Assembly: GCA_016235455.1 (NCBI GenBank)
Contig: JACRKZ010000018.1
Span: forward strand, 1-64,000
Length of the DNA stretch: 64,000 nt
Direction of reading: 5' to 3'
DNA from: Armatimonadota bacterium
GTDB lineage: Bacteria; Armatimonadota; UBA10988
In this document: one piece after another, positions 18,769-47,711 of the stretch
Numbering within the stretch: the stretch's first letter is position 1
Layout: each line of letters begins with the position of its first letter
Translations under genes and position numbers: made by a program
Notes under the pieces: generated by a model
Seen by the model: the letters and a program-made list of their open reading frames with translations, nothing else
Told to the model about the DNA's origin: nothing
Database searches by the model: none

Positions 18769-18798
18769 AGCATACCAACCCGCAACCCCGCCTGTCAA
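18769..18798 (-). promoter_or_regulatory. Sigma70-type promoter
   Basis: TTGACA-18 nt-TATGCT on the minus strand upstream of 18743. Confidence 0.65.
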
Positions 18799-19050
18799 CG
18801 CGACTTGGCGCCCCCCTACCGGCCCTTCGCAACACGCTCGACGCACTCCGCCACGGCGCTTTCTCGCTCTCGGGTGACCCGAGTGCGACATCTTGGCCAG
18901 TACCGGATGTTTCTAGTCGATCTCCTCGGGACATCCAAGAGTCACGGTCACGCAACATCCACGACATCTTACTATTCTATAGTACGCGCGCGCACGCGTG
19001 TGACCCAGGGCGCGATGGCCGGGCCGCGGCGGACAATGGAGGACCGAACA

Positions 19051-20349: not shown

Positions 20350-20590
20350 ACGGCCGCACAGCCGGCACCGAAACACTTCGCGGGTCGTTCGCCAGCCGGC
20401 GGACGACCCGCGAAGCCGCTTGTAGAGCGCTCTCGCGGCGATTCGTCGCCGATTTGTGTTCGGTTCATGTTTCGTCCTAAGTTTCACCGTCACGACATCT
20501 CCCCGACATCTCTCCGGGGCACAATACGGTTACGCACAGAGGTGGACCGGGCCAGTGAGCCGGGCCGGTGCGACCGAGGAGGACCGAGAC

Positions 20591-22135: not shown

Positions 22136-22219
22136 TGGGCCTGACACCGCGACAAGGAGTGATCGAGACGGGGAAGGAGTCGCCACCGGCGCGACGAACC
22201 ATGAGCTATCCGCACGAGG

Positions 22220-24981: not shown

Positions 24982-24994
24982 GAGAGCATGGTCC

Positions 24995-26257
24995 ATGGCC
25001 GATCCGCTGCGTCTGCGAACCGCCACCGACAAGCCGTGCCGTCCACTGGACGGTGATTTCCTGACCACGGTGTTGGTGGAGGTGGCGCCCGCGCGCCGGC
25101 TGCGGCGGCTGCCACTCAACCTCGGCCTGCTGATCGATACCAGCGAGTCCATGCAAGGCGACAAACTAGACCAGGCACGCGAGGCGGTCATCGGCATGCT
25201 GGCCCGCCTGCAGCCGGATGACCTGGTGACGCTGGTCAGCTTCGCCTCACGGCCCGAGACGCATCTACGGGCCCAGCAGGCCGGGCCGGAGACGCATGAA
25301 CGCGCCCGCGGTGCCCTCATGGGCCTGCGCGCCGAAGGCGTCACCCAGCTCCTCCGCGGGCTGGAGACGGCCAACGCCGAACTACGCCGCAACGCAGGGC
25401 CCGACCGCAGCTCGTTCCTCGTCCTGCTCTCAGATGGCTTCCCTACCACCAACCAGGGCTACATCGATGCCGTGCAGGAGCCGTATCTGGTGCGCGTGGA
25501 CCGGGAGATGCGCGATCGCGGCATCTCCCTCAGCACCATCGGGCTGGGCGATGCCGCCAACTACGACCAGGCCTTCCTGCGCCGCCTGTCCGACAAGGGC
25601 AACGGACAGTTCTACTACTGTCAATCGCCCACCGCGCTAGCCCAGGACTTCTCGCGCGAGATCGGCCGCATCCAGCGCACCGTGCTGGGCGACGTCCAGC
25701 TCTCCGTGCGCCACCTGGATGGCACGTTGCGCCGCCTGTGGCGCGTGTTTCCCGACAAGAAGCTGTTCGATACGCCGCAAGTCGTCGATGGCGCCTTCAG
25801 CGTGCCCATCGGCTCGCTGCAGGACGAGCAGCCGCAGGCCTTCCTGCTGGACATCGTCACCTCGGCGCGGCCAACGTGCCGCGAACGCCTGCTCGAGGTG
25901 GACGCCGAGTGGTTCGGTGAGGGCCGCACCAATCGCGCCACGGCGCCCGTGGTCCTGGAATGGACCGACGACGCGCGAGCCCTGGCCCAACGCAACCAGG
26001 AAGTGGTACGCCTGGCCGCCGAGTGCCTGGATGCCTTGTTGGAGGAGGAACTCGAAGACGCGGTGTCCACAGGCAGCGTCGCCAAACAGACCAGCGTGCT
26101 GGCCCGCAAGAAGCAACTGACCGCCCGCCTGGGCAAGGTGGAAGCCACCCAGGTGCTCGAAGAGATGGAAGATGCACTGGCCGCGGGCCAGCCGATCTCG
26201 CAAGATGCACTGGCTCGTTCGAGCCAGCACACCAAGCCGACCCAACGTCTAGGGTAA
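24995..26257 (+). CDS. VWA domain protein (YfbK-like)
   Basis: MIDAS DTSESM, LLSDG, TIGLG; C-terminal helical tail. Confidence 0.88.
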   Translation: MADPLRLRTATDKPCRPLDGDFLTTVLVEVAPARRLRRLPLNLGLLIDTSESMQGDKLDQAREAVIGMLARLQPDDLVTLVSFASRPETHLRAQQAGPETHERARGALMGLRAEGVTQLLRGLETANAELRRNAGPDRSSFLVLLSDGFPTTNQGYIDAVQEPYLVRVDREMRDRGISLSTIGLGDAANYDQAFLRRLSDKGNGQFYYCQSPTALAQDFSREIGRIQRTVLGDVQLSVRHLDGTLRRLWRVFPDKKLFDTPQVVDGAFSVPIGSLQDEQPQAFLLDIVTSARPTCRERLLEVDAEWFGEGRTNRATAPVVLEWTDDARALAQRNQEVVRLAAECLDALLEEELEDAVSTGSVAKQTSVLARKKQLTARLGKVEATQVLEEMEDALAAGQPISQDALARSSQHTKPTQRLG

Positions 26258-26261
26258 CCCG

Positions 26262-26996
26262 ATGCGCTGTCCTGAATGCCAACATGCCAACGTCGCCGGG
26301 AGCCTCTTCTGCGAGGTCTGCGGCGCCGACCTCGACACGCAGGTAGTCGCCTTGCCGACACCGGCGCCCGCGATCGCCGAGCCCGCCTCGCCGGCAGAGC
26401 CAGCCGCACAGACGACGGGTCTGGGCGGCGGCTCGGAAGCCGCCGACGGCAGCGTCCCGACTGGCGCGCTGGTCTGCGCGCACTGTGGGCACGGCAATGA
26501 CCCGCGGTTCGTCATCTGCGAAGCCTGTGGGCGCGCCTTGACCCGCATTGCCGTGGTGGCCGCGGACGAAGCCCCCGCTCGCCGACTGGAGACTGCCGCC
26601 GCTCAGCCTGCGCCGGCGCCACCGGCCGCACCCAGCTTGGTGTCCGGCCAGTTGGCCACCGGACCCCAGCGCGGCAAGGTCAAGCTGGTGGTTGAACAGG
26701 GCATGGTGTTGGGCAAGCAGTTCCTGCTCAGCGAGGAGCAGAGCCTTGTCGGCCGCGAAGACGCCGCCGACCGCATCTTCCCCGAGATTGACCTCAGCGG
26801 GCTCGACGAAGGCTACGTGCATCGGCGCCATGCCCTGCTGACCTTCGAGGGCACCTTCCTGTTCGTCACCCACCTCGGTGGCCACAACCGGACCTATGTG
26901 AACAACCGGCCTATCGCCGATCACCTGCCGCACCCGGTGAACATCGGCGACACGGTCCGCTTCGGCAAAGTCCTTCTGCGCGTCACAGAGGCATAG
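26262..26996 (+). CDS. Double zinc-ribbon + FHA protein
   Basis: CPECQ..FCEVCG, CAHCG..ICEACG; VGRED..VHRRHA..NRTYVN. Confidence 0.88.
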   Translation: MRCPECQHANVAGSLFCEVCGADLDTQVVALPTPAPAIAEPASPAEPAAQTTGLGGGSEAADGSVPTGALVCAHCGHGNDPRFVICEACGRALTRIAVVAADEAPARRLETAAAQPAPAPPAAPSLVSGQLATGPQRGKVKLVVEQGMVLGKQFLLSEEQSLVGREDAADRIFPEIDLSGLDEGYVHRRHALLTFEGTFLFVTHLGGHNRTYVNNRPIADHLPHPVNIGDTVRFGKVLLRVTEA

Positions 26997-28292
26997 ATGG
27001 CGGTTCGACTCACGCACGCAACGGGTGATCTCATCGGACACCACATGGTCCGCGGCCTGCTCGGCCGCGGTGCCTTCGGCTCGGTCTACCGGTGCGTCGA
27101 CCCGACTTCTGGCGAGCTGCGCGTCATCAAGGAGATGCACGTCGCCGCGCCGGCCGACGAGGCCGCCATGGCGCTTGAGCATTTCCGGGCCGAGGCGGCG
27201 CTGGTGGCCACACTCGACCACCCGCACCTGCCCCACGGCGAGGCGTTGACAGTTGACGGTCCGTTCACCATCGATGCCGCGACCGGCGCCGCCGCCGACG
27301 AGGGGGCGGAAGACACACTGAGTGTGCGAAGCCGCCATTACCTCGTTATGGACGCGCTGGATGGCGTGTCCATGGAGGAGCTGTGCGAGATCGCTGGCAG
27401 CACCGAGCGGCCCCTGGCGCCCGCCACGGTGCTCGCCTGGGCGCAGCAGATCGGCGGCGCGCTGAGCTACCTGCATGCCCGCGGGCTCGTACATCGCGAC
27501 GTCAAGCCCGCCAACATCATCATCAACAGCGCCGGCGACCGAGCCATGCTCATCGATCTGGGACTGACGCGCGAGGCACGCGTGGTGCCCGGCTACGGCA
27601 CGCAGCCGATCAGCACTAGCGGGCGGTTCGGGACACGCGGTTACGCGCCGCCCGATCCCATGGAGCAGGAAGAGCCAACAGCGCTCAGCGACCTGCACGC
27701 GCTCGGCATGACTCTGTTGCGCGCGCTGACCGGGCTTGACCCGACGCGGCCTGACGAGTTGGCCAGACTGCGTGCCCTGAACCTGCTCGACTCCCTCAGC
27801 GATCTCGAGCCCTACCAGGCGGCGCTCCTGCTGCGGGCCACCCGGCCAGACCCGTCCGACCGGCCGTCGTCGGTGGATGCCTTCCTGGACGGTCTGCGCC
27901 ATCCCCCGGCGCTGGCGCTGAACCCGAGTTGGACCTGCTGGCTGGAGCTGCGGCCACCCAGCATCGATGCGGGGCAACTGCGCGCGGGGCAGATCCGCGA
28001 CCTGACGGTGACCATCCATGACAAGCGTGCTGGCCGCCAACCGGAGGGCGAGGCCATCAGCGAAGACCCATGCCTGCGCATCTTGCCGCCAGCCTTGCGT
28101 GGCACCGACATCGTGCTGCCGTTGGTGCTGCGTGTGCCGCCTCGCCAGGAGCCCGGCCACTACCGCACGTCGCTGATGGTGCGCACGGCCGATGAGGAGC
28201 ACGAAGTGCCGGTGACCTATGAGGTGACGCCGCGTCCGGCCGGCGGCACGCCGGGCGGGTGCTTGCTGATGGGGTTCGGCGGGACGAAGTGA
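26997..28292 (+). CDS. Ser/Thr protein kinase with C-terminal beta-rich (Ig-like) domain
   Basis: LGRGAFGSVY, VIKE, HRDVKPAN, DLG, GTRGYAPP. Confidence 0.88.
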   Translation: MAVRLTHATGDLIGHHMVRGLLGRGAFGSVYRCVDPTSGELRVIKEMHVAAPADEAAMALEHFRAEAALVATLDHPHLPHGEALTVDGPFTIDAATGAAADEGAEDTLSVRSRHYLVMDALDGVSMEELCEIAGSTERPLAPATVLAWAQQIGGALSYLHARGLVHRDVKPANIIINSAGDRAMLIDLGLTREARVVPGYGTQPISTSGRFGTRGYAPPDPMEQEEPTALSDLHALGMTLLRALTGLDPTRPDELARLRALNLLDSLSDLEPYQAALLLRATRPDPSDRPSSVDAFLDGLRHPPALALNPSWTCWLELRPPSIDAGQLRAGQIRDLTVTIHDKRAGRQPEGEAISEDPCLRILPPALRGTDIVLPLVLRVPPRQEPGHYRTSLMVRTADEEHEVPVTYEVTPRPAGGTPGGCLLMGFGGTK

Positions 28293-28383: not shown

Positions 28384-28413
28384 ATAATAGGCCTCGCCCC
28401 GGCAGATCGTCAA
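28384..28413 (-). promoter_or_regulatory. Putative promoter of tRNA-Arg
   Basis: TTGACG-18 nt-TATTAT on the minus strand. Confidence 0.5.
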
Positions 28414-29288
28414 GCGTCGGCAGCCGCCACGCCCTCCGACAGCAGTTCGATGTGCTCCCGCCACATCAGGTGCAGCCGCCCAGCCAGCCCATGCTCGATG
28501 GCCAACCGCCGGGCCAACGCCTTGGCGTCGGCACGCTGGTAGCGGCCAGAGACGTGAGTCAACACCAGATCTCGCACACTCGCCTGGGCAGCCACAGCCA
28601 CGGCCTCGGCCATCGTGGCATGCACCAGCGGCCCACGGTCCGCCTCGTCCAGGAACGTTGCCTCCAGCCAGGCCACATCGGCACCAGCCACCATGGCCGG
28701 ATCGGGCGCCAGGCCATCGCCGCCAAATACCGCCAGGGGATGGTCGTAGCCCTCGCTGATTGCCTCGCGCCCGCGCGCCGCCGCCAGGTCGCGGATAGCC
28801 GAGCCGCTAAGGCCATGGAACTCGCCGCGGAGCCGCGTGCGATGCTCGATGAGCCGGTAACCAAGGGTGAGGAAGGCCGCATGGCGAGTGGCGAACGCCT
28901 CGAGGCTGCGCTGGTCATCCAGCGGCACGCGCTCGCCCGGCTCCATCGCCCGCCACGACACCTTGTCTTCCATGGCCGGCTGGCTGGCCGCCAGGTACGA
29001 GCGCATCGGCGCGAGCAGCGGGTCGCCGGCCGGGTACACGATGGTGAGCGGCGCGTCGACATCGCCCATACCGGCGTGGCGCGCGTTGAGCAGCGACGGC
29101 AAACCCGAGATATGGTCGAGATGCCCGTGGGTCAGCGCGACCGTGCGCAGGCCGAACACGCGGTTGCGTAGCGCGGTGGCGCAGCCCTCGCCGCAATCGA
29201 CCATGAAATGGAACGGCCGACACACCAGCCAGGAACTGTACAGTGCCAGCGAGTGGCCCTCGTAACTATCGGTCAACGGACTGCGCAT
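28410..29288 (-). CDS. rnz: Ribonuclease Z-like MBL-fold nuclease
   Basis: DCGEG, THGHLDHISG, EATF, HAT, LTHVSGRY motifs. Confidence 0.8.
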   Translation of the reverse strand: MRSPLTDSYEGHSLALYSSWLVCRPFHFMVDCGEGCATALRNRVFGLRTVALTHGHLDHISGLPSLLNARHAGMGDVDAPLTIVYPAGDPLLAPMRSYLAASQPAMEDKVSWRAMEPGERVPLDDQRSLEAFATRHAAFLTLGYRLIEHRTRLRGEFHGLSGSAIRDLAAARGREAISEGYDHPLAVFGGDGLAPDPAMVAGADVAWLEATFLDEADRGPLVHATMAEAVAVAAQASVRDLVLTHVSGRYQRADAKALARRLAIEHGLAGRLHLMWREHIELLSEGVAAADA

Positions 29289-29357
29289 AGCCGCCCCAAA
29301 CGCAAGACGCGGCACCCGCCTCCCTGGGCCGATGCCGCGTCCTGGACACCACGACGA

Positions 29358-31346
29358 TCAGAACGGTAGCTGTGTGACGCTCCGTTGGATCATGGCGATG
29401 GCCACGCAGGCCATGCCGATCAGACCCATGCCGCAGGAGAAGCCCGCCATGAGCACCGTCGCGTAAAGTTTCCACTGCCGAGCGCCGAAGCGCGGGATGA
29501 GGTAGAACTGCGCCGCACCGGCGCCGATGATTTCCGGCAAGATGCTCATGGGCAGGTAGCCCAGACCCCGGATGAAGCCGAAGATCGCCGTGATGGGCAA
29601 GCGGAACAGCGAGAACAGCCAGTAGGCGACGACCGCGCTGCCGAACGCTGTACCGATGATGCTCGGTTTCAGGGCCTTCAGCAGGTAGCTGTTGCCTTCC
29701 GCCGTGGCGGTGTACCACAGCGACTGGTTCAGCGCCTGCAGCTGCCAGAACTTCTGCGCGTAGGGATACTGCACGCTCGGGATCTCCGCGATCTTCCACA
29801 GGAACTGCCAGTAGAAGAAGCTGGCAAACAGGATGATCGGGAACATGCAGAGCTCGGCCTTGATGATCGAGGTGAACTTGGTACCCGTCAACTCGACCAC
29901 GCGGAACTGCTCTGCGAGGCCGGCGTAGTTGTTCAATGGGATCGGCGCGAACCAGATGTCGACACCCTTGTACCCGGACAGGATGAACGCCGCCTCGCGC
30001 TCGAACGGGATGCCGATGTACTGACCGGCGATACCACGCACCCGGGCCGAGACGTAGCTCTGCATCGGGGTCCAGATGAACCCGAAGAACACGAAGTAGG
30101 CCCACGGGAAGTTCGGGATCAGGATGCGGCACAAGATGATGTAGAAGGTCGCTGCGAAGGCCCACAGGCCCAGCGCCACGGCAATCGGGATGTCTCCGCG
30201 CCCAGGCGGCGGCGGCGGCATCCACACCGTGCTCTTGACCGACGATGTCGACCGGCGCGCGCGGCTCTCGCGAACCGCGTCGATGCCGATGTCCACGAAG
30301 CTGACCAGGGCGACGGCCAGGGCGATGCCCAGGCCCCAGGACAGATAGAAGTCGACACTGTTGGCGAAGTTGGTCTGGATGGCGTCCATACCGTAGCGCC
30401 ACGTGGTCAACATGCCCGCCTTGTAGAGCGTCGGGTTGAGCACGAAGGTGCCGGCCGCGGCCGCGAACGAGCCGACCACCGCCCAGAACGGGATGACCGT
30501 ACCCACGATGACCGAGCCCAGGTTGAGCGTGATGCCCGTGGCCGTTGCCGGCAGGAAGGCCTCGGTCTTCTGGGTCAGGTCAAGGAACGGGATCGGGATG
30601 AGCTGGATCGGTTTGGAGAGGAACACGCCCGATACCGCGGGAATGCCGACATAGACCACGCCGAAGGCCACGCCGACCATGGCGCCGACACTGAACAGCT
30701 TCCAGCGCCAGGTCTCGGACTTGCTGGTGATTTCGGCCAGCGCCGTCACGCCCTGCGCCGCGATCGGCGCCATCGGGAACGGCAGGTTCTCCTTGTCCGA
30801 GGTGACGCGGAACAGCGTGTAGCCGAACCCGTACCACGACAGGCGCTCGACGAAACTCGTGCTGACGGCCAGCAGGATGGGCACCAGCCAGTCCCGATGC
30901 AGGAACGTGCGCTGGATAAGCGCCATGCTGTCCTCGGGCGGGACCACCCAACGAGGGATCTGCCCGGAGATGCCAAAGCCCTTGGCCGCCTGCGAATAGG
31001 CAAAGTACTGGTTGTAGATCATCCAGCCAAAGTAGCCGCCGGCGATGGACAGCGAGCCATTGGCCCGCACCAAGTGGCTCGCGACGTAGTAGAGAATGTA
31101 GATCTCTTGCCGCGAGAGCTTGGTGAACGACCGCCTGGCCAACTCGGCGAACAGGATGATCGTCGTCCATTCGGCCGCCGAACCCAGGTCCGCGCCCATG
31201 ACCAAGCCCAAGTAGATGGAGCCCGGCAGGATGCAGAAGGCCAGGAACAGCATACCGATGATCGTCTTGATGTCGAAGCCGTCCTCGAACTCGGTCGGCC
31301 TCTCCATCAAGTCGCGGTAGATCTGGAGTTCAGGGTCGAGTCTCAC
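29358..31346 (-). CDS. OPT-family-like polytopic membrane transporter
   Basis: 662 aa with many TM helices; YLGLVMG, LPFPMAPIAAQG; no ATPase domain. Confidence 0.75.
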   Translation of the reverse strand: MRLDPELQIYRDLMERPTEFEDGFDIKTIIGMLFLAFCILPGSIYLGLVMGADLGSAAEWTTIILFAELARRSFTKLSRQEIYILYYVASHLVRANGSLSIAGGYFGWMIYNQYFAYSQAAKGFGISGQIPRWVVPPEDSMALIQRTFLHRDWLVPILLAVSTSFVERLSWYGFGYTLFRVTSDKENLPFPMAPIAAQGVTALAEITSKSETWRWKLFSVGAMVGVAFGVVYVGIPAVSGVFLSKPIQLIPIPFLDLTQKTEAFLPATATGITLNLGSVIVGTVIPFWAVVGSFAAAAGTFVLNPTLYKAGMLTTWRYGMDAIQTNFANSVDFYLSWGLGIALAVALVSFVDIGIDAVRESRARRSTSSVKSTVWMPPPPPGRGDIPIAVALGLWAFAATFYIILCRILIPNFPWAYFVFFGFIWTPMQSYVSARVRGIAGQYIGIPFEREAAFILSGYKGVDIWFAPIPLNNYAGLAEQFRVVELTGTKFTSIIKAELCMFPIILFASFFYWQFLWKIAEIPSVQYPYAQKFWQLQALNQSLWYTATAEGNSYLLKALKPSIIGTAFGSAVVAYWLFSLFRLPITAIFGFIRGLGYLPMSILPEIIGAGAAQFYLIPRFGARQWKLYATVLMAGFSCGMGLIGMACVAIAMIQRSVTQLPF

Positions 31347-31391
31347 CCTTGCCTACTCCTCGCCGTAAGTCGGACCTTGGCCCGACGCCGG

Positions 31392-34300
31392 TCACACTTG
31401 GTCATCGCCAGCAGCCTTCTCGGCGTCGTCCGCCTCGGCCTTGGTGGCCTCCGAGGCCTCCAAGGCTTCCTGCGCTGCCGTCCGAATCTGGCTCATCAGC
31501 TTGCGCCGCTCTTCCACGCGCTCTTCCTCGTCGAGCAGGTACAGTTCCTTCTCCTCGGCGGGGATCGTGCGCCAGATGAGGAACTGCTTGCGCAGCGTGT
31601 TCAGGAAGCGGCGGTTGACGCGCATCCAACTGCTTACGTCGCCGCTCTCGCGCACCAGCACGATATCGATCTCGTAGACGTCCTTCATGTCAGTGAGCCG
31701 CGTCCGCAGCGTGACATGCTGGCTCACACCCAGGTCGAATGGTGCCAACCAGGCCATGAGCGAGACCTCGTAGCCCTCGCCGTAGACGCCCTGCACCGCG
31801 TTGAGCCGCGTGCTCTCGGTGACGAAGTCGCCGATCGAGTACTCCTCGTAGGCATTGAACCACTCGGCCAGGAACTTGTTCATCGCCACGGCCTGCTTGC
31901 CCGTGACCGAGAACGGCAGCGGAATGGTCCACTCGTCGCCATCGGGATCCGGCACGCGCCACCGCCGCTCCACGCCCGGCGTGGCCACCTCACCAGCCTT
32001 CTTGGCCGGATACAGCGTGGACAGGAAGACCACACCGATGACCACGAAGGTCGACCAGATGGCGGCCAGCGATGAGTAGTTCAACGACAGGCCCTGCAGG
32101 AGGTTGAACTGGCCTAAGAGGAAGGACAGCACCTGCCCCATCAGGTACCCCAGGATGGCGCCGATGATCGAGTAGACCAGCGCCTCCGCGAGGAACAGGA
32201 TGGCCACGTGCGACGGCGCGAGGCCAATCGACGAGAAGATGCCGATCTCGGAGAACCGTTCGTAGACCGCTCCAAGCATGGTGTTGAGCACGATGAGCGC
32301 GGCGATGGCGATGGGCACCAGCAGGTCCGCCAGACCCGACACCGAGGTCGAGGACACCGAGCTGTAGCGCACAATCTCGTCGCCGCGACCCGCGTAGAGG
32401 TTAAAGCCCAGGCGCGGCATCAGCTCCGCCAGGCGCTTCTTCACACTCTCCACGTTGCTGAAGTCGGTCGTGATGGAGCGCAGCGAGCCACCCATGTTGA
32501 TCAGTGTGTCGAACGGCACGAAGACTGTGGCGTCCGGCGTCAGGTGCAGGTACTCCTGGAAGCCCTGCTCGCCCTCACCGCTGCCACCGCCGCCGCCGGC
32601 GCCCTGCTGGCCCTGCATCTGCTGCATCATGATGAAGTCGACCGGCGTGATCATCTCGCCGTCGAGGTCGTCGATCTGCTTCAGGCGCGCGTTGTCGAAG
32701 ATGCCCACCAACTGGAACTCAACGCCGTTGATGCGGATCTTGGTGGTGCCAATGTCCTTCTCATCGAGGTTGAACGCATCAGCGATGCCTTCGGGCAGCA
32801 CGCACGAGTAGACGTCCGCCTTGGTGAACCAGCGCCCATGCTTGAGTGCCTTGTCGATCTGCGTGACCTTGGACTCCTCGGGGGTCAAACCACACAGCGC
32901 CTTGGCGTCGTAGCCGGCGTTCGACTTGTTGGACGTGATGGACACGAAGCTCTGCTCGCCCAGCTCGGAGGTGTAGAACCACGAGCGGCCGGCGACAGCG
33001 TGGTCCTGGCCAAACTCGTCCTTGAGCAGCGTGTAGCCCTGCTCCTCGAGCGGTCGCCAGGTGGCGCTGCGGACCATGATGCCCTGGTAGCCCGGCTTGC
33101 CGGGCGCCCTGACAGTGTTGAACCGCAACTGCTGCACCACGGAGGTGAACGACAGCACGGTGAAGGTCAGCAGCACCAGCGTGGAGCAGGTCAGCGCGGT
33201 GCGCAGCGGGCGACGCCGCATGTTGCTGATGCCCAGGTTGAAGGCCGCGGTAGTCACGCCCAGCCGGCCGATGTCGGCGCTATGCGTGCCGCCCATCTGC
33301 CGCTGGAGTTCCTTGAGTTGCTCCTCGAACTTGCCCGCAATGATGAAGATCACCAACAGGCTCAGCGCGAGCATGATGAAGGCCAGCAGGATGATCACCG
33401 GGTTCATGGTGATCTTGAAGGCCGGATGGACCCGGCTGAAGACGAGGAACACGAACGCGAAGATGAGCACCATCTCGCGGATCTGCCGGTTGATCTGCGG
33501 CCGCGCAAAGAGCAGACGCTCGGCGAAGAAGGCGAACGGCAGGAGCAGCGCCAGGTAGAAGATGACACCCTTGACCACATCGTCGGCGGTCTTCTGCACG
33601 TCCGGATAGGCGCGCGCCTCAAAGCCGTGCGCGGCGCGCGCCGAGGCCTCGAAGTCCTGGAAACGCCGCTCCGCGAGCGCGGTGCGGGCCACCTTCAGTC
33701 GGTCGGCGGCCTGCTTGTGCAGGTCGTCGATCTGCTGGTTGACGATGCGGAAGCGCCGCAACTGGCTGATGCGGAACTCGTCGAGATTCCACATGTCCGT
33801 CGCGGTCATGTATGGCGTGTAGTAGACGGCGCGCGAGATGCGATCCTCGGTGGTACCGATCTTGTCCTTGGGCAGGAACACGCCCGTGCCCGCGCCGAGC
33901 ACTTCGTAGCCGAAGCCCTCGGCCGCGTCGCGGTCGTTGGCCACCTTGGGGAAGCGGTCGGGCTGGTTGGGCACCTGGCCCTTCTTGGCGTAGCTGTTGA
34001 TCAGGATGAACCGCTTGCTGGCCAGGCCAGAACCCATCACCACTTTGAAGCGGCTGCCCGGCCGGGAGAACACGACGGCGGTCGTCTCCACGTGCGACTG
34101 ACCTGGTTCAGGTTTGACCAGGCAGAATCCGTACTGCTGCGGCTCGCTGTCGGTGCGCCCGTCGTAGACGCTGAGCGTCTTGAGCGCCTCCATGGTCTGG
34201 GGGTCGACGAGTTCGAACAGCGCGGTGGAGACACACTGGAAGACCACCACGGTAGCGTCGCGCCGCGCGATGTCGACGGTCACCTCGGTTGGGTAGGCAG

Positions 34301-36116
34301 CCGCGCCGTTGGTGCCTTTGTCGGGGGCATAGCGGATCTGACCGCTCTGCGGGTCAAGCGCATAGGCCTCGAGCAGGCCGATCTTCTCGCCGCCGGCCGA
34401 TGCGGGCTTGACGCCGACGAACTTGAACAGCGACTCGCTGCCCTCGACCATCTCCACCATGTTGCCGCGCACACCCATATAGGACTTGGACGGTGTGCGC
34501 AGCACGGCCAGCGCGTTGGGCACGGCCTTGTCCGGAATGAAGCTCTCGCGCGGGTCGAACAGCGCCACGCGGCCGCCAATGGTGGCGAAGCCGCCCTGGC
34601 CGTGGATGCGCTGCAGATCGCTGCGGTCGGGCACCGGCACCTGCTCCTCGTTGAGCACGATGTCGTACATGCACTTGAGGAAGCGCGCCTGTTTGAAGAC
34701 GTTGTCGAAGTCGACGCGGTCCACGGTGTCGAAGGGCGTGTCGACCAGCGGCCGCGAGTCGTCGATGGTGCAGAAGGCGACGCCGAGGCCGTTGGCGCTG
34801 GTGAACAGCTCACTGCCGAAGGCCACCTTACCTGGGATGAAGTTGGCCCAGGTCTTGCCCTGCACGGGGTTGATGCCGTCGGCGAACGACTCGTCGGGGT
34901 TCTCGCCGAGCGCCTCGGCCACGTTCTGCGCGCGTTCGCGGCAGACCCGGCCCAGATCGGCGAAGCGCTGGCGCACATCGTCGCGCTGGTCGAAGAAGTG
35001 ACCCTTGTAGAACAGGCCGACGCCCTTGGTCTTCGAGGCGATATCCAGACTCGAGTACAAGGAGATCGGATCGCTACCGTCGGAGATGGACTGGAAGTGC
35101 TGGTCCAGATACTGTCTGGTACCCGCCAGCGCCTGGAAGTGGCCGGCGGTGAGCAGCAGCCTCACGCTCCGCGCGGGCGGCCGGGCCACGAATTCGCGCG
35201 CCAGTTCCAACAGCACCGCGGCGCCGAGCGCCGACTCCGCGCCGGGCGCCAGGCTGGGCACCACGGAGATGGAGTCGTAGAAGGCCTCGATGACCACCGT
35301 CTGCCCGGCGAGCTGGGGGCTCGAGCCGGGGATGTTGGCCACGATGTTGCGCACCGGCCGGCGCATCCACGGCATCTCGGAGCGCAGCCGCACGCGCAGG
35401 CCAGGCTGGTGCTCCAAGCGGGTCTGCAGCAGGTCGGCATCACGCCGGGCAATGTAGAAGCGCGGCATGTCGATGGGGATGGACGAGAACTTGGCCTCGA
35501 CCTCACCACGAATGGTGTCGGCCGGCTCGACGAAGATGATGGCCTGCGCGCCCAGTCGTGGTGCGTTGAGCCAATCGCTGCCGCAGTTGAACTCGATCAG
35601 CGCGATGCCGTTCTCGATGGCCGTGCCGTCGTAGTCGCGCAGCTTGCTCATGCCGCCGTAGACCAACTGCGAGGTCAGTCCGGTAGGCGGCAACTGGCTG
35701 GTGCGCACCAGGTTGGGCCACATCGAGTGCAACGGCAAGGGCTTGCCCACGGGCCGGCCTTGCGCGTCCAGCACGTCCAGGCTGGCGCCGGCGTCGACCG
35801 GCACGGTGACCGAGAAGTCCTCGTAGCGGACGTCCTGCACACCGATCTGCTCAAGCTGCTCGCGCAGATAGATGGCGGCCTGGTCACAGCCGGGGTAGCC
35901 GCTGACCCGCGAGCCAAGCTTGACCAGCTCCTCGACGTAGCCGCGCAGGCGCTGCTCATCGAGCCCGCCGGCCAGGCGCGTGAAACGTGCACGGTCGCCC
36001 GCGGTCACCGCGGCAACCTGCGCGCTCGCCTGCTCGGCGTGCGACAGCGCAACGAGGATTGCACACAACCCGACCAGCACCACCCGGTAGCGGGGCCAAC
36101 GGAGCGTCACCGTCAT
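31392..36116 (-). CDS. Giant M28-peptidase-like / MacB-FtsX permease fusion membrane protein (1574 aa)
   Basis: Signal peptide; LGSRVSGYPG, VIEAFYDS..APGAES (M28-like); NMRRRPLRTALT; LNTMLGAVYERFSEIGIFSSIGLAP (FtsX). Confidence 0.82.
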   Translation of the reverse strand: MTVTLRWPRYRVVLVGLCAILVALSHAEQASAQVAAVTAGDRARFTRLAGGLDEQRLRGYVEELVKLGSRVSGYPGCDQAAIYLREQLEQIGVQDVRYEDFSVTVPVDAGASLDVLDAQGRPVGKPLPLHSMWPNLVRTSQLPPTGLTSQLVYGGMSKLRDYDGTAIENGIALIEFNCGSDWLNAPRLGAQAIIFVEPADTIRGEVEAKFSSIPIDMPRFYIARRDADLLQTRLEHQPGLRVRLRSEMPWMRRPVRNIVANIPGSSPQLAGQTVVIEAFYDSISVVPSLAPGAESALGAAVLLELAREFVARPPARSVRLLLTAGHFQALAGTRQYLDQHFQSISDGSDPISLYSSLDIASKTKGVGLFYKGHFFDQRDDVRQRFADLGRVCRERAQNVAEALGENPDESFADGINPVQGKTWANFIPGKVAFGSELFTSANGLGVAFCTIDDSRPLVDTPFDTVDRVDFDNVFKQARFLKCMYDIVLNEEQVPVPDRSDLQRIHGQGGFATIGGRVALFDPRESFIPDKAVPNALAVLRTPSKSYMGVRGNMVEMVEGSESLFKFVGVKPASAGGEKIGLLEAYALDPQSGQIRYAPDKGTNGAAAYPTEVTVDIARRDATVVVFQCVSTALFELVDPQTMEALKTLSVYDGRTDSEPQQYGFCLVKPEPGQSHVETTAVVFSRPGSRFKVVMGSGLASKRFILINSYAKKGQVPNQPDRFPKVANDRDAAEGFGYEVLGAGTGVFLPKDKIGTTEDRISRAVYYTPYMTATDMWNLDEFRISQLRRFRIVNQQIDDLHKQAADRLKVARTALAERRFQDFEASARAAHGFEARAYPDVQKTADDVVKGVIFYLALLLPFAFFAERLLFARPQINRQIREMVLIFAFVFLVFSRVHPAFKITMNPVIILLAFIMLALSLLVIFIIAGKFEEQLKELQRQMGGTHSADIGRLGVTTAAFNLGISNMRRRPLRTALTCSTLVLLTFTVLSFTSVVQQLRFNTVRAPGKPGYQGIMVRSATWRPLEEQGYTLLKDEFGQDHAVAGRSWFYTSELGEQSFVSITSNKSNAGYDAKALCGLTPEESKVTQIDKALKHGRWFTKADVYSCVLPEGIADAFNLDEKDIGTTKIRINGVEFQLVGIFDNARLKQIDDLDGEMITPVDFIMMQQMQGQQGAGGGGGSGEGEQGFQEYLHLTPDATVFVPFDTLINMGGSLRSITTDFSNVESVKKRLAELMPRLGFNLYAGRGDEIVRYSSVSSTSVSGLADLLVPIAIAALIVLNTMLGAVYERFSEIGIFSSIGLAPSHVAILFLAEALVYSIIGAILGYLMGQVLSFLLGQFNLLQGLSLNYSSLAAIWSTFVVIGVVFLSTLYPAKKAGEVATPGVERRWRVPDPDGDEWTIPLPFSVTGKQAVAMNKFLAEWFNAYEEYSIGDFVTESTRLNAVQGVYGEGYEVSLMAWLAPFDLGVSQHVTLRTRLTDMKDVYEIDIVLVRESGDVSSWMRVNRRFLNTLRKQFLIWRTIPAEEKELYLLDEEERVEERRKLMSQIRTAAQEALEASEATKAEADDAEKAAGDDQV

Positions 36117-36196
36117 GGGGCCATTTCCCTGTTCACAGAGCAAGCTGGAGCCACGCAAGGGTGGCCGCCGAGGAAGGGGCTCTGACGAACGGCGCG

Positions 36197-36225
36197 ACTG
36201 TAGCAGAAATCAAACGCCGCGTCAA
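36197..36225 (-). promoter_or_regulatory. Sigma70-type promoter of the M28-FtsX/OPT/rnz run
   Basis: TTGACG-17 nt-TACAGT with extended TG. Confidence 0.6.
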
Positions 36226-36763
36226 CCACGCTCCAAACCTCCTCGGGCCCGCTTGTCAGGCGGGATTGGCACCCCGCGGGCCATGGCTTTGGGCTCGCGT
36301 CGTTCACCATATTCACCGGTTTGCCCAGGACTCCTTCTGGCGCTTGGGAACCATGGTCGAGTCGCCGCGCGTTTGGGGGTCGCGCCACGGAGTCGTCGGC
36401 ATGGCAGACCCAGGGGAGCACGCCGTAGTCGAGGCCAACGGCCTCGGCGGCGGCTCCGCTGTTTGCTTCGGTCTCTGGATGGGGCGGCCCTTGTGGGCGG
36501 CGGCCGAGGCCACGGGTGCCTGGTTGCGTGGCGGCGCCACAAGGCACAGGCGGCGTTGCTGGGCGGGCTGGTGCCTTTGCCGTCCGCCTGGGGGCTGTCG
36601 CCGTGGCTCGCCGCGGTCAGTCGAAGCGACTGCGTACCGCCCGCGGCATGCGCGCTGGCGCAGGTCGTTGGCGATCTTGGCTGGACACCGCGCAGTCCCG
36701 ATGATGTACACTTAGGATCGGTCGGCAGTGGAGCCCGCCGCCGGCCTGTCTGGGGTGAACGCC

Positions 36764-38035
36764 ATGACTTACCAAGAGCTCTACGATGCCGGTTTGGCCG
36801 CGCTACGCGCGCAGCGCGCGGCGGAAGCCGTTGCGCCGTTGACCGAATGCACGCAATTGGCCCCCGAGCAGCCCGACGCCTGGTTGTTCCTCGGCGTGGC
36901 GCACGGCATGTTGGACAGCGTCGACGAGGCACGCGCCGCACTGGAGCACGCCGGTGAGCTGGCGCCCAACGATGCGCGCGTGCTCTACAACCTGGGCCGG
37001 CTGGCGCAGCGCTCAGGCGACTTCGATGCGGCACGCGATCAGCTGCGGCGCTGTCTGGCACTCGACCCGTCCAACCAGCGGGCCCGCGAGGCGCTGGCCA
37101 GCGTGGAGCCGGCCAACCTGGGCGAGCCGGCCCAGCCCGACCAAGTCATCCGGCCGACGCGGCCCGAGGGGTTGGGCCCGCTGGCTGGCTGGGTGGAGAT
37201 GCCGGCCCTCGATGGCCGCGCGGTGCTGCGCATGATGCCCGTGCTGGCCGTCGCGGTCGGCGTCGTCTCCGCCATCGACTCGTTCGCCGCCGCGGCCGCG
37301 GGCGGCTTCCGCGTGACCAGCCTCCAGCTGGCGCTGGGCACCGCGGCGTTCGTCGTGCTGCTGCAACCGATCTTGGCGGGCCTCCTGGGCGCCGCGTGCG
37401 CCAAGACCTATACGTTCTTCGCCCAACGTTTCACCGCGCCGCGGATGAGGCTGGAGCAGGTCGCCGGCAAGCAGCGCCTGGTCGAGATCGACCCGATGAG
37501 CGCCGGCCGCGCCATGCTCTGGTGGTCGGTGCCGTCGCTGATCCTGATGTGCCTCGTGATGGTGGCCATGGTCCCGTACTTCGCGTCGGCGGCCTCCACG
37601 GCCTCCCGTGCGGCCGTGACCACGACGGGTGTACTGCTGGGTGCCGTGATCGGCGTTGTCTTCGCCCTGCCCATCTCGGCCATCATCCTCTATGTCCTGG
37701 GCCTGATTGGCGGGCTCATCTACAACCTGGTGGCCACCTACACCGGTGGCATCGAGGCTGCTTTCACGCCGCGCGGCGCCGAGATCGAGGCGACCGACGT
37801 GTCCTGGCAGCCCACGGCCAGCACCCTGTTCTGGTGCAATGTCCCACTGATGGGCCTGATGCTGGCCGCGATGGCCATGACGGCAGCCATGCCGGCCACC
37901 GGCTCCGCCGGGGCGGCGGGTCATCTGGCCAACTGCGTGACCCTGGCGCTGTCGCCGTTCGTGCGGGTCGCGGCTTACCGCAAGGCCCAGCCGTCGATCG
38001 GCGGCTTCCGCTTCATCGTCCGTCCGCTCGACTGA
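36764..38035 (+). CDS. TPR protein with repeated DUF3566-like membrane modules
   Basis: N-terminal TPRs (AWLFLGVA, VLYNLGRL); EIDPMSAG...LIYNLVATYTGGIE. Confidence 0.7.
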   Translation: MTYQELYDAGLAALRAQRAAEAVAPLTECTQLAPEQPDAWLFLGVAHGMLDSVDEARAALEHAGELAPNDARVLYNLGRLAQRSGDFDAARDQLRRCLALDPSNQRAREALASVEPANLGEPAQPDQVIRPTRPEGLGPLAGWVEMPALDGRAVLRMMPVLAVAVGVVSAIDSFAAAAAGGFRVTSLQLALGTAAFVVLLQPILAGLLGAACAKTYTFFAQRFTAPRMRLEQVAGKQRLVEIDPMSAGRAMLWWSVPSLILMCLVMVAMVPYFASAASTASRAAVTTTGVLLGAVIGVVFALPISAIILYVLGLIGGLIYNLVATYTGGIEAAFTPRGAEIEATDVSWQPTASTLFWCNVPLMGLMLAAMAMTAAMPATGSAGAAGHLANCVTLALSPFVRVAAYRKAQPSIGGFRFIVRPLD

Positions 38036-38049
38036 CCCGAGGAGTCTCC

Positions 38050-39495
38050 ATGGGCGACCAACTCACCCGCGGGCTCGAAGCCGCGCTGACCTCCGGTGCG
38101 TCGTATGCCGACGCACGCCTGCTCACCGTGGATACCGAATACCTGGCCGCGCGGCGTGGCCAGGTGGCCGCGGTGCATCGCGAAGAGGAGACCGGCCTGT
38201 CGGTGCGCGTGCTGGTCGATGGCGCTTGGGGTTTCGGCTCCACCGCCGACCTGAGCAGCGACGGCGTGGCGCGCGCTGCGGCGTTCGCCGTGGCCAACGC
38301 CCGCGACACCGCGCGGCTGCGACTGGCGCCGGTGGAACTCGCGCCCGAGCCCGCGCTCACGGCCAGCTACGAGACGCCGTACCAACGCGATCCGACCAGC
38401 GTGCCGCTGACGGAGAAGCTCGACCTGCTGGTTGAGGTGGTGCGGCGCATGGAGGAGCATCCTGGCGTGGCCGTGGCCGATGCCTCCATGGAATTCCGCA
38501 CCGAGCGCCAGAGGCAGCTCACCAGCGAGGGCAGCGACCTGACGCAGACCATTCGCTTCGCCGGCGTGGGCATGGGCGCCACCTCGGTCGGGCCAGGCGG
38601 TGTGCAGCGGCGCAGCTACCCCAATTCCTGGGGACAGTACATTTCGGGCGGCTATGAACTGGTCGACGAGAGCGACCTGCCGAGTCACTGCGCTCGACTG
38701 GCCGCCGAGGCCGCCGCGCTGCAAGAGGCCGACGTCTGTCCCAGCGGCCGCTTCGACCTCATTCTGGACCCGCGGCAGCTCACGCTGCAGATCCATGAGA
38801 GCGTGGGCCACCCGCTGGAGCTCGACCGCGTGCTGGGCGGCGAGGCCAACTACGCGGGTACCAGCTTCGCCACACCCGAGAAGTTGGGCCACCTGCAGTA
38901 CGGCAGCCCGCTGGTCAACCTGACCGCCGACGCCACCTTGCCCCGCGGCGTGGCCACGTTCGGCTTCGATGATGAAGGCGTGGCGGCGCAGCGCTGGCCG
39001 CTGGTGGCGGACGGCGTTCTGGCCGGTTATCTGACCTCGCGCGAGTATGCAGGCGCCATCGGCGAGGCGCGCAGCCGCGGCGCCATGCGGGCCGACGGCT
39101 GGCACAACGCGCCGATCGTGCGCATGGTCAACATCAACCTGGAGCCCGGCCGCGAGGACCTGCTGCTCGATGACCTGATCGCCGACACCAAGCACGGCAT
39201 CTACATGAGCACGAACCGCTCGTGGAGCATCGACCAGCGCCGCGTCAACTTCCAGTTCGGCTGCGAGATCGCCTGGGAGATCCGCGACGGCAAGCTGGGC
39301 CGGATGTTGCGCAACCCCGTCTACCACGGGCTGACGACCGAGTTCTGGGGCAGCTGTGACGCCATCGCCGGGCCACGCGCCTGGGAACCTTGGGGCATCA
39401 ACAACTGCGGTAAGGGCCAACCTGGCCAGCGCGCCGAGATGACCCACGGGTCCAGTCCGACGCGCTTCCGGCAGGTGGCTTGCGGTACTGCTTAG
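38050..39495 (+). CDS. tldD: TldD/PmbA family metalloprotease (TldD-like)
   Basis: YADAR, VRVLVDGAWGF, IHESVGHPLELD, FDDEG, RMVN, CGKGQP. Confidence 0.9.
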   Translation: MGDQLTRGLEAALTSGASYADARLLTVDTEYLAARRGQVAAVHREEETGLSVRVLVDGAWGFGSTADLSSDGVARAAAFAVANARDTARLRLAPVELAPEPALTASYETPYQRDPTSVPLTEKLDLLVEVVRRMEEHPGVAVADASMEFRTERQRQLTSEGSDLTQTIRFAGVGMGATSVGPGGVQRRSYPNSWGQYISGGYELVDESDLPSHCARLAAEAAALQEADVCPSGRFDLILDPRQLTLQIHESVGHPLELDRVLGGEANYAGTSFATPEKLGHLQYGSPLVNLTADATLPRGVATFGFDDEGVAAQRWPLVADGVLAGYLTSREYAGAIGEARSRGAMRADGWHNAPIVRMVNINLEPGREDLLLDDLIADTKHGIYMSTNRSWSIDQRRVNFQFGCEIAWEIRDGKLGRMLRNPVYHGLTTEFWGSCDAIAGPRAWEPWGINNCGKGQPGQRAEMTHGSSPTRFRQVACGTA

Positions 39496-45611: not shown

Positions 45612-45946
45612 TTGCCACCGCCGACCGCGTCACGCCCGACGATCCGCTGCCGGTGGCGGTAGCCGTCGTCAATTCCACCGGCCAGCCCCTGCACGGGCTG
45701 AGCGCCGAGCTCACGCTCGAGATCGAGAAGGGCGTGCTGCTGTCGTGGGAACTGATCCTCGCGGATGTGCCGGCCGGCGGCCAACTCGATCAGGCCATGC
45801 TCGACGCGCGGCCGGCATACCGCCTGCCGCACAACGCCGCCGTCGGCCAGGGCATGTTCCGCGCGCGGCTCTACGCCTCGGATGGCGCGCAGTTGGCCGA
45901 GGCCGAGCTCCAGTTACCGGTGACGGGCAGCGCCAGTCCGTCGTAA
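45587..45946 (+). CDS. Small hypothetical beta-rich protein
   Basis: ATG 45587; GC3-rich codons in this frame; fills the MFS-PhnP gap. Confidence 0.55.
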   Translation: MPGPSLRLVATADRVTPDDPLPVAVAVVNSTGQPLHGLSAELTLEIEKGVLLSWELILADVPAGGQLDQAMLDARPAYRLPHNAAVGQGMFRARLYASDGAQLAEAELQLPVTGSASPS

Positions 45947-46686: not shown

Positions 46687-46702
46687 GGGTCTTCCTCCAC
46701 CG

Positions 46703-46739: not shown

Positions 46740-47711
46740 ATGAGCAGCGAATGGCGACGCTTTGGCTGGCAGCAGATGACCTTCATGGCGCCGGCTGACT
46801 GGTACCTGACCAAGATCTCCACCGAGCGCGCCTCGGGTGAGCTGTGGCTGTCCGACGCCGACTTGCCGCGCCTGCAGGTCAAGTGGAACGACGCCGCCAG
46901 GGAGAAGAAGGTCAACCCCAAGGGCACCCTGACCGCCTATCTGGCCAGCATCGAGCGCGCGGCCAAGAAGCGCAAGCTGTCCTGGCAGGCCGAGCGCGAC
47001 CTGCGCTTCTTCAAGGGCGGCCAGGCCGACGTGTCCAGCCTTGAGGGTTTCCACTGGACCTCGGAGATTGAGGCTTACGGCGCCATCTGGTACAGCCCGA
47101 AGAGCCTGCGCGTCACGCTCAGCCAGGTCAACGGCAAGACCGGCGAGAGCGACCTCAAGGCACTGGCCAAGCGGGTGCTCAACTCGCTGAGCGACGCACC
47201 CCAGGGCGAACTCGACCTGTGGACCGCCTACGACCTGACCTGCTCGGTGCCGCACGACTTCACGCTGGCCGAACAGCACATGGAGACCGGTCGCACCGAA
47301 CTCGACTTCGTGCGCGGCAAACAGGGCGAAAGGCTAGCCTGCGCGCGCTACGGTCTGGCTGCCATCGCGCTCGAGCGCGTCGGCGACCTGGGTGACTGGG
47401 CCTATCAGCAGCGCTTCAAGGCCTGGTACACCTATGACCTCAAGCGCGAGCTGGCCAATTTCGGCAGTTGGTCTTGCGTCCACTTCAGTGGGCTCAAGAA
47501 GAGCTGGCGCGAACGGCTGCGCCAGCGCATCTACGCCTTCCTCGGTCGCAAACTGCCCGTGGCGCTGAGCGCCTGGGTGTGGCACTGCCCCGAAGAGAAC
47601 GTGATCCTCATTGTCGAGCACCAGCACGACCCGCGCGACGACAGCCTCGTACCCCGGCTCGCGGAGCATATGCTCAGCCGACCAGAGCTGGTCGCGCCGC
47701 CCAAGGGCTGA
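46740..47711 (+). CDS. Hypothetical protein, two repeated alpha/beta halves
   Basis: FGWQQMTFMAPADW and LWTAYDLTCSVPHDF open two similar halves. Confidence 0.75.
   Translation: MSSEWRRFGWQQMTFMAPADWYLTKISTERASGELWLSDADLPRLQVKWNDAAREKKVNPKGTLTAYLASIERAAKKRKLSWQAERDLRFFKGGQADVSSLEGFHWTSEIEAYGAIWYSPKSLRVTLSQVNGKTGESDLKALAKRVLNSLSDAPQGELDLWTAYDLTCSVPHDFTLAEQHMETGRTELDFVRGKQGERLACARYGLAAIALERVGDLGDWAYQQRFKAWYTYDLKRELANFGSWSCVHFSGLKKSWRERLRQRIYAFLGRKLPVALSAWVWHCPEENVILIVEHQHDPRDDSLVPRLAEHMLSRPELVAPPKG

Follow-up and report, generated by a model that had tools for sequence, protein, structure and literature searches.

Within the 64,000-nucleotide stretch of DNA analyzed here (the window; positions 1 to 64,000, forward strand, of contig JACRKZ010000018.1 in assembly GCA_016235455.1, from an Armatimonadota bacterium of the UBA10988 lineage), a pair of co-directional open reading frames (ORFs) on the minus strand spans positions 29358-36158. 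The upstream gene (31392..36116, -) encodes a 1574-residue membrane protein, hereafter the giant, in which a periplasmic peptidase-like head is joined to an FtsX-type permease. The downstream gene (29358..31346, -; GTG start at 31346) encodes a 662-residue polytopic membrane protein with a predicted OPT/Yellow-Stripe fold, hereafter the OPT-like protein. With moderate confidence, the pair can be read as the window-resident half of a conserved multi-gene ATP-binding cassette (ABC) machine of type VII (MacB/LolCDE/FtsEX class) that includes an OPT-fold permease and has a probable role in peptide-like uptake.

The initial annotation of this locus had described the upstream product as a multi-part protein of 1574 residues, and the ORF, its hydropathy and its Pfam domains bear this out. 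Its start is more plausibly the ATG at 36116, which has AGGGAA just 5' of it, than the TTG at 36158 that opens the longest form of the ORF (31392..36158, -; 1588 residues). From the N-terminus the parts are a PA/M28-like head, a middle periplasmic region, a three-helix transmembrane (TM) bundle, a MacB-type FtsX module and a cytoplasmic tail. Hydropathy places a signal or anchor at residues 21-45, then a periplasmic stretch of ~815 residues, TM segments within residues 861-940, a short cytoplasmic linker, TM1 at 985-1009, TM2-4 at 1280-1382 and a further ~200 cytoplasmic residues. The three Pfam families that had been suggested for hidden Markov model scans of the giant all pass their cut-offs: Peptidase_M28 (PF04389; residues 271-398, 36.6 bits against 21.3, a partial match to profile positions 1-117 of 193), MacB_PCD (PF12704; residues 987-1182, 31.9 bits against 27) and FtsX (PF02687; residues 1283-1388, 46.5 bits against 25.5). 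The middle region (residues ~541-860; 33579..34538, -), between the head and the first TM segment, ends in a long helical stretch and has no Pfam or PDB-profile match. The extra bundle ahead of the FtsX module (residues 861-940; 33339..33578, -) has hydropathy segments at 861-879, 896-914 and 922-940; in a predicted model of residues 835-1574 its helices are H2-35, H41-62 and H72-108.

The head (residues ~60-540; 34539..35981, -) resembles aminopeptidases with a PA domain. A profile built from 27 giants matched the PA-domain aminopeptidase 2ek8 in the PDB (E 4e-23), nicalin (7e-10) and the transferrin receptor (~3e-6), and also YwaD and GCPII. A canonical M28 site has five zinc ligands (H, D, E, D, H) and a catalytic Glu. 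When the giant was aligned with 2ek8 and compared with 48 giants from fetched loci, this full set was not found in the head. The position of the first His ligand is Phe or Tyr, with His in just 8 of the 48, all of Latescibacterota type; the bridging Asp is Glu in 46 and Asp in two; the catalytic/ligand Glu-Glu pair is His followed by F, H, M, G, C or Y in all 48; and the last His appears to be replaced by an invariant Arg455. Asp358, the fourth ligand, is the sole canonical ligand retained in the giant. Judging from the alignment, the canonical di-zinc aminopeptidase site is gone, in line with the earlier description of this domain as a degenerate M28 peptidase. However, the replacement residues are themselves conserved, suggesting that the site was re-tooled rather than decayed, and "re-tooled" may be the more exact word. 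D281, H326, D358 and R455 are invariant in the 27 giants. Two variations of the head were seen elsewhere. The giants of 14 loci of Armatimonadia, WS1 and Zipacnadia (L019, L021, L023, L024, L026, L027, L029, L031-L033, L035, L049, L065 and L080) carry a charged, coiled-coil-like insertion of ~200 residues just past the H-F motif of the M28-like domain. In a Latescibacterota giant (L078, 2539-7080, +), ~47 internal residues around the AGHFQNMAGMRH motif are repeated in tandem, which is either real or an assembly artefact.

The MacB-type module (32013..33206, -) comprises TM1, a periplasmic core domain, TM2-4 and a loop with the motif ER..EIG. The model of residues 835-1574 (pLDDT 77.2, pTM 0.46) gave 53 Foldseek matches at E<=0.001, led by MacB (5gko, E 1e-13) and including LolCDE, YtrEF, HrtBA, YbbAP and BceAB. 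Likewise, VIA returned YtrF (Z 15.9), MacB (Z 15.1) and the Vibrio cholerae FtsX 8tzj (Z 14.0, rmsd 2.9 over 165 residues) for the C-terminal half, and the periplasmic region of MacB, 3ftj, at Z 13.3 (rmsd 3.1 over 177 residues). At its FtsX end the profile of the 27 giants matched MacB (4.7e-16), YtrF, LolF and LolC in the PDB. NCBIfam models for MacB, LolC/E and FtsX all match the giant below threshold, and no equivalog cut-off is reached: lolCE scores 22.3 bits against 362, and the FtsX models score at most 16 bits. The ER..EIG motif lies between TM2 and TM3 (E1286, R1287, E1290 and I1291) and is invariant in the 27 giants. In YbbP, the coupling helix to the ATPase sits between TM2 and TM3 (PMC12646458). 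By analogy of position, we infer that the ER..EIG loop is a putative ATPase contact.

After TM4 comes a family-specific cytoplasmic domain with an acidic, lysine-rich tail (31395..32012, -). The block is nearly invariant in the 27 giants and holds the LAPFDLGVSQ segment that had been singled out in the initial annotation. Clustered at 50% identity, proteins with the domain number 1444 representatives at E<=1e-3, of which 1065 reach <=1e-10 and 82 reach <=1e-30. All of the 150 best matches carry it at their very C-terminal end, and most of these proteins are 1450-1900 residues long. The model of the domain is alpha+beta. KA1 and START/Aha1-like folds match it at Z 7-8.7, which is too weak to name the fold. 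Four tail-domain proteins of 2451-3053 residues were considered as possible fusions of a giant with an OPT-like protein (Rosetta-stone proteins); by BLASTP none has an OPT-like part, and their extra length is N-terminal.

The OPT-like gene begins 45 nt past the giant, exactly as first annotated, and GAGGAG precedes its GTG in the spacer (31347..31391, -). Its earlier label as OPT-like holds at the level of fold; Pfam does not assign it. The protein has no Pfam match at E<=0.1, so the gathering threshold of PF03169 is not reached, and a profile of its family matches no PDB chain at E<=10. Its model (pLDDT 79.0, pTM 0.80), on the other hand, matches barley YS1 with probability 1.00 (7wst_A, E 1.8e-9; 7wsr_A, E 2.2e-9; TMq 0.61-0.64, TMt 0.66-0.70, ~680 columns). 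These are its sole Foldseek matches at E<=0.001, the next being at E 0.025 with TM 0.11. The predicted structure indicates that the downstream partner has the OPT/YSL fold yet is too divergent for the Pfam family test. Relatives come closer to the family: PF03169 matches 4 of 27 aligned relatives (best 1.5e-9), and an orthologue that lies beside its giant in genome G026 passes the threshold (27.9 bits against 25.8). More than 3075 homologues were found, of which several are named "peptide transporter" at NCBI and a few have a precomputed PF03169 match; the nearest named relatives are in Fimbriimonadaceae. A 53%-identical homologue has as its neighbours in the Atlas clusters named "peptide transporter", where OPT is assigned to 15-33% of members; clusters of Lentisphaerota and Thermoproteota are among them. 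No canonical PF03169 gene was found in the window's own genome, and in the phylum only borderline matches were seen, in 6 of 61 genomes.

The two genes may share a transcript. RNA-library contigs from a relative that is 90-95% identical at the DNA level (four bioreactor metatranscriptomic libraries from four studies) cover both genes, and two of them bridge the spacer (X14, 31293-31940; X15, 31047-31652). Coming from a relative, these contigs are compatible with co-transcription but are no proof of a single transcript. About 80 nt 5' of the giant's ATG is a match to a sigma-70-like promoter, TTGACG-17-TACAGT (36197..36225, -). The pair had been placed behind one clear promoter. The match is there, but it agrees with the consensus at just 9 of 12 positions, and it is a pattern match only, from a scan that gave four sites in the region against 0.9 +/- 1.1 in shuffles.

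Conservation of the pair was surveyed in 401 Armatimonadota genomes (giant at E<=1e-30, OPT-like protein at E<=1e-10), of which 326 carry the giant and 322 the OPT-like gene. Both occur in 319 genomes and neither in 72; the giant alone is found in seven, all of them at most 84% complete, and the OPT-like gene alone in three. As at least 20 of the 72 genomes without either gene are 90-100% complete, the system appears to be accessory, not a fixture of every member of the phylum. For 25 genomes the best places of both genes were listed, and in 23 of them the giant lies immediately upstream on the same strand; the other two are the fragmentary G069 and G110. Both genes are also present at 8 of 12 loci (11 genomes) fetched from the places of giants. 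In a wider survey of the 80 best loci across GTDB species, found with the OPT-like alignment, a giant is upstream on the same strand at 44 (at 26 of them within 300 nt), while 11 have less than 5 kb of upstream sequence. Linked pairs were found in Armatimonadota (including WS1 and Zipacnadia records), Latescibacterota, Gemmatimonadota, Abditibacteriota and one metagenome-assembled genome of Planctomycetota. The expectation that similar pairs recur in Armatimonadota and Planctomycetota is thereby borne out, for the latter by that one genome. When the 80 OPT-like proteins were placed in a tree, linked and solo copies formed separate, well-supported clades, with 7 changes of label against a mean of 26.2 after shuffling (0 of 500 shuffles were as low), and the clade of the window's protein holds 24 linked rows and one undetermined. 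No recurrent partner was seen among the neighbours of solo OPT-like genes. In genus g20, small membrane-protein genes with DUF4190 and DUF2752 sit between the giant and the OPT-like gene (L001, 10159-11048, +).

It had also been noted that no ABC ATPase gene lies near the pair. This is true of the window, where no PF00005 match occurs within ~29 kb of the pair, the nearest on the contig being at window positions 72-521 and at C94:94549. The other FtsX genes of the same genome each have an ABC ATPase gene no more than ~1 kb away. They belong to a canonical FtsE/FtsX/M23 activator (EnvC-like) set on contig C93 (FtsE at 277.5 bits against a cut-off of 264.85), to a MacAB-like set on C178 and to a double-FtsX set on C66. 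The missing ATPase can be traced through other genomes. At 6 of the 12 fetched loci, the OPT-like gene is followed by further genes of the operon, which encode a protein of ~300-350 residues from an uncharacterized family, a PqqD protein (matched by Pfam in four of the six: L005, L007, L011 and L012), an FtsX protein of only ~210 residues (the short FtsX) and an ABC ATPase. The short FtsX has four TM helices, and since just ~15-25 residues separate TM1 and TM2, it is without a periplasmic domain; it also has the ER..EIG motif. A tblastn search with the operon-linked proteins found orthologues of PqqD, short FtsX and ATPase together on C66 of the window's genome (24998-27275, -), where Pfam recognizes PqqD, FtsX and ABC_tran. 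The ATPase there is 69-76% identical to the operon-linked ATPases. Its best NCBIfam model is LolD (229 bits; cut-off 307.75), then MacB, DevA, DarD and FtsE, none at an equivalog cut-off, and its PqqD-like neighbour matches PF05402 at 48.1 bits (cut-off 23.4) and the PqqD-family NCBIfam models weakly. The orphan MacB-type ATPase whose search had been proposed is accordingly present, beside a short FtsX. In this genome, a CobW-like GTPase gene and, separately, an HlyD adaptor, an ATPase and an 808-residue double-FtsX exporter are encoded directly upstream of the module (G000:C66, L013, 10445-15683, -). At locus L002 (2486-4324, -), the system's ATPase is fused in one frame of 612 residues to a Peptidase_M16_C (inactive M16) domain.

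The short FtsX also follows the giant across genomes. At E<=1e-25 the short FtsX was found in 311 of the 401 genomes, namely in 309 of the 326 that bear the giant (17 have the giant only) and in 2 of the 75 that lack it (73 have neither). Within families the giant, the OPT-like gene and the short FtsX rise and fall together, with 14/47, 14/47 and 13/47 genomes in f11 and, for all three genes, 2/6 in f6, 2/7 in f7 and 0/3 in f9. Of the 80 GTDB loci, 18 have an ATPase at least 65% identical to that of C66. In 14 of these the order is short FtsX, ATPase, giant, OPT-like gene, and in four it is giant, OPT-like gene, the ~300-residue protein, PqqD, short FtsX, ATPase. With the ATPase upstream of the giant in the former and downstream in the latter, there are two independent operon layouts. 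Across phyla the operon-linked ATPase is 66-77% identical. All five genomes of other phyla that were tested, which have the pair but no ATPase within 10 kb of it, encode the short FtsX and an ATPase (66-70% identical) elsewhere, with PqqD visible in two of the five short flanks. In the window's own family, G056, G015 and G043 likewise carry the pair and the ATPase module on different contigs. Both G054 and G193 hold two giant-OPT pairs plus a further, solo OPT-like gene, but only a single PqqD-short FtsX-ATPase module.

The remaining operon member may have a counterpart in the window. With queries from eight loci, tblastn gave one match in the genome to the ~300-residue protein, a probable homologue at 46740..47711 (+) with 21-29% identity and E values of 6e-9 to 4e-23; the giant lies ~10.6 kb away. 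The family has no Pfam match, no PDB relative (best E 0.95) and no TM segment, in keeping with a cytoplasmic protein. The gene is flanked in the window by a second MBL-fold gene (45871-46704, -) and a SAM_MT methyltransferase gene (47712-48500, +). At locus L024, a cluster of the Armatimonadia type, an FtsW/RodA/SpoVE-family gene (14231-15388, +) lies between DUF1559 genes and the gene for the ~300-residue protein.

Given the above, there is strong reason to think that a heteromeric, ATPase-equipped system exists. How it would work can be proposed from synteny and from what is known of the families. The membrane part would be an asymmetric dimer of the giant and the short FtsX, powered by two ATPase copies, and ATP binding and hydrolysis would move the periplasmic core domain and the head by mechanotransmission. 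In the study of YbbAP-TesA, type VII ABC systems are described as transmitting force and as typically passing no substrates across the membrane (PMC12646458). Since such motors do not themselves translocate, the OPT-fold protein would supply the transmembrane path: the head may capture a peptide-like oligomer and hand it over to the OPT-fold permease for uptake, with the PqqD-like and ~300-residue cytoplasmic proteins acting as peptide-sensing regulators. The heterodimer, the coupling to the ATPase, the direction and the substrate are all put forward by analogy, and the uptake of a peptide-like substrate in particular is a tentative assignment that may well prove wrong.

Uptake is favored here on several grounds. 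Characterized members of the OPT/YSL group are known as importers. The accessory proteins in the cytoplasm belong to families that bind peptides (PqqD, with M16_C in L002). As noted above, many Armatimonadota do without the system, which makes it an accessory one. The gene content of G054 and G193 looks like several specificities served by one shared motor. A weak further hint is gene neighbourhood: genes for family-1 solute-binding proteins occur upstream at L024, L035, L021 and L002, genes for DUF1559 pseudopilin-like proteins follow the OPT-like gene at five loci, and both recur beside operons of the Armatimonadia type. A more speculative extension, which we regard as doubtful, is a hybrid class in which a type VII motor is mechanically coupled to an OPT-fold permease, the re-tooled PA/M28 head serves as receptor and one motor serves several giant-OPT pairs. 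If it were true, it would be a third way to put ATP behind nutrient uptake, beside binding-protein-dependent ABC importers and TRAP/TonB-type systems.

Several observations weigh against a multi-gene uptake machine of this kind. Six of the 17 giant-bearing genomes without a detected short FtsX are at least 96% complete, and the two-by-two counts overstate the support because related genomes are not independent. In G110 the giant and the OPT-like gene are unlinked, and at 25 of the 80 GTDB loci the 5 kb or more of sequence upstream of the OPT-like gene holds no giant; as the solo copies form clades of their own, OPT-fold relatives can work alone. Solute-binding and DUF1559 genes are abundant in these genomes, so that their recurrence beside the operons counts for little. 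Finally, the head retains an invariant set of Glu, His, Asp and Arg, so it may bind metal or catalyze a reaction rather than be a mere receptor.

The best surviving alternative is export or envelope biogenesis, to which we give perhaps one chance in several. Here a peptide, lipopeptide, lipoprotein or glycolipid made by the cell would be recognized by the PqqD-like protein, leave through the OPT-fold protein and be extracted or handed on by the ATP-driven giant, as in LolCDE- or darobactin-type systems. The NCBIfam ranking of the ATPase, with LolD, MacB, DevA and DarD at the top, fits this, as does the annotation of PqqD-family domains as leader-binding chaperones of ribosomally synthesized and post-translationally modified peptides (RiPPs). 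A radical-SAM gene lies beside the module in L005 and the M16_C fusion occurs in L002, while the window's own genome has no lolCE over its cut-off and no LolA match. Characterized type VII systems act mostly outward (PMC12646458). However, no conserved gene for a precursor peptide or modifying enzyme was found in the loci examined; the radical-SAM gene is present in one of the six extended loci, and its homologue in the window's genome is on yet another contig. An essential Lol-type function would also be hard to reconcile with the apparent absence of the system from at least 20 near-complete genomes of the phylum. Nor do LolCE-like genes and the giant replace one another, since 7 of 23 giant-lacking and 19 of 98 giant-bearing genomes have a LolCE-like gene, and a non-orthologous displacement of LolCE by the system was rejected on these counts. 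The importing habit of characterized OPT/YSL members and the duplication of giant-OPT pairs against one motor module, as expected for uptake specificities, likewise favor the uptake machine.

The invariant residues of the head invite another explanation, an ATP-regulated periplasmic hydrolase in the style of FtsEX-EnvC or YbbAP-TesA, whose non-canonical site would be switched or fed by the motor while the OPT-fold permease recycled the peptide products. Conservation of the Glu, His326, Asp358 and Arg455 at the former metal site exceeds what is expected of a dead site, and an OPT-fold partner suits the import of peptides. Type VII motors coupled to hydrolases have a precedent as well, in the YbbAP-TesA report (PMC12646458). 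We nonetheless consider a hydrolase improbable. In the head, other residues stand in place of the general-base Glu and of three or more of the five canonical zinc ligands, the closest degenerate relatives (the transferrin receptor and nicalin) are binding modules, and a canonical FtsEX with an M23 EnvC-like partner is already encoded on C93.

That the giant works without any ABC ATPase, energized by the OPT-like protein as a secondary transporter, was the proposal of the initial annotation. The empty ~29 kb in the window, loci of Latescibacterota/Gemmatimonadota type with no ATPase within 10 kb and the tighter link of the giant to the OPT-like gene than to the ATPase speak for it. It is nevertheless very unlikely, and we do not retain it: a cognate ATPase of LolD/MacB class is conserved and operonic at 6 of 12 and 18 of 80 loci, occurs on C66 in this genome and in all five other-phylum genomes, and belongs to a module that tracks the giant across the phylum, and the giant retains the invariant TM2-TM3 coupling motif. 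Equally hard to credit is that the pair and the short-FtsX/ATPase module are independent and co-occur by shared ancestry, which their separation in the window's family (G000, G056, G015, G043), f32, f47 and the other phyla tested and the 17 genomes with no detected short FtsX would allow, for the genes are jointly lost or absent within f11, f6, f7, f18, f22 and f14, form one operon in two gene orders and, in genomes with duplicated giants, still come with only one motor module, and a four-TM FtsX without an ectodomain would have no evident function alone.

Several other genes lie around the pair. An MBL-fold gene (28410-29315, -) starts 42 nt past the stop of the OPT-like gene; its best NCBIfam match is Thermotoga-type RNase Z (4e-45), below the cut-off. 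It was rejected as part of the system, its downstream position being conserved only in the closest relative, L017, and it is probably an unrelated tRNA-processing gene. Converging on the end of the operon (22205-28292, +) are genes for a Ser/Thr kinase with FHA, a PP2C phosphatase, a VWA protein, a zinc-ribbon/FHA protein and a second kinase, preceded by two tandem ammonium-transporter genes (18760-21898, +; PF00909, E 1e-118 and 3e-123). Divergent from the giant (36728-39495, +) are genes for a TPR protein and a TldD/PmbA-type metallopeptidase. The ORF of the latter (37396-39495) overlaps the TPR gene, so its true start is probably near 38.0 kb, and neither gene is conserved beside giants in the other loci examined. 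A few kb past the operon of L024 (18146-19922, +), a gene for a DarT-like ADP-ribosyltransferase is followed by a Macro-domain gene, a toxin-antitoxin pair of DarTG type.

Should the giant and the short FtsX work as one machine with the ATPase and the OPT-fold protein, they would be an undescribed build of transport machine made from two known superfamilies. The system is common, occurring in ~80% of the sampled Armatimonadota genomes and in several poorly studied phyla, and a role for it would give function to many proteins annotated as "hypothetical" or "peptide transporter". It would also widen the type VII repertoire beyond efflux, lipoprotein release, control of cell-wall hydrolases and lipid extraction. 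For annotation, it is a caution that the ATPase of a seemingly "orphan" FtsX permease may be encoded at a distant locus. No description of the giant/OPT/ATPase combination was found in searches of full-text literature, and the nearest published work is that on YbbAP-TesA (PMC12646458).

Each component can be set beside better known proteins. Like the active PA-M28 aminopeptidases (2EK8, YwaD), the head has a PA domain inserted in an M28 fold and, like the transferrin receptor and nicalin, it does not conserve the di-zinc site. Unlike the PA-domain M28 proteins, nicastrin included, it is covalently tethered to an ABC-type permease, and the residues that replace the bridging Asp (Glu), the catalytic Glu (His) and the last His (Arg) are conserved. 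The OPT-like protein shares its overall fold and its size of ~660 residues with the OPT/YSL transporters (barley YS1, 7WST/7WSR), and some orthologues pass the PF03169 threshold; it is only 12-13% identical to YS1, however, and comes from clades stably encoded directly after a giant FtsX protein. The C66 PqqD-like protein and its operon-linked relatives share PF05402 with PqqD and the RiPP recognition elements. They differ from RiPP systems in that no precursor or maturase is conserved near the gene and in that some genomes (L011) fuse the PqqD domain to the N-terminus of the short FtsX, an arrangement that to our knowledge is not found in RiPP systems.

The system as a whole is closest to the type VII mechanotransducers (MacAB-TolC, LolCDE, FtsEX-EnvC, YbbAP-TesA, YtrEF, HrtBA and BceAB). 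The giant has the FtsX domain, periplasmic core domain and TM2-TM3 coupling loop of a type VII permease, with its probable ATPase encoded elsewhere in the genome. It is neither LolCDE nor FtsEX by family assignment: lolCE and LolD fall short of their cut-offs and the genome has no LolA, while the FtsX models barely score on the giant and the canonical FtsE, FtsX and M23 set is a separate one. No membrane-fusion protein or LolA was seen with the system, in contrast to other type VII systems. What it shares with them is an FtsX module of four helices, in which a Porter/Sabre-type periplasmic domain separates TM1 from TM2, together with the conserved TM2-TM3 coupling loop and an ATPase of LolD/MacB/FtsE class. 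Like LolCDE, it has two different FtsX subunits; like FtsEX-EnvC and YbbAP-TesA, it has a hydrolase-like periplasmic partner, which here is fused to the permease. It departs from all of them in that one subunit is 1574 residues long, with a fused head, three extra TM segments and a unique C-terminal domain, in that the second FtsX subunit has no periplasmic domain at all, and in its obligate-looking OPT-fold neighbour, which is accompanied by PqqD-like and ~300-residue cytoplasmic proteins.

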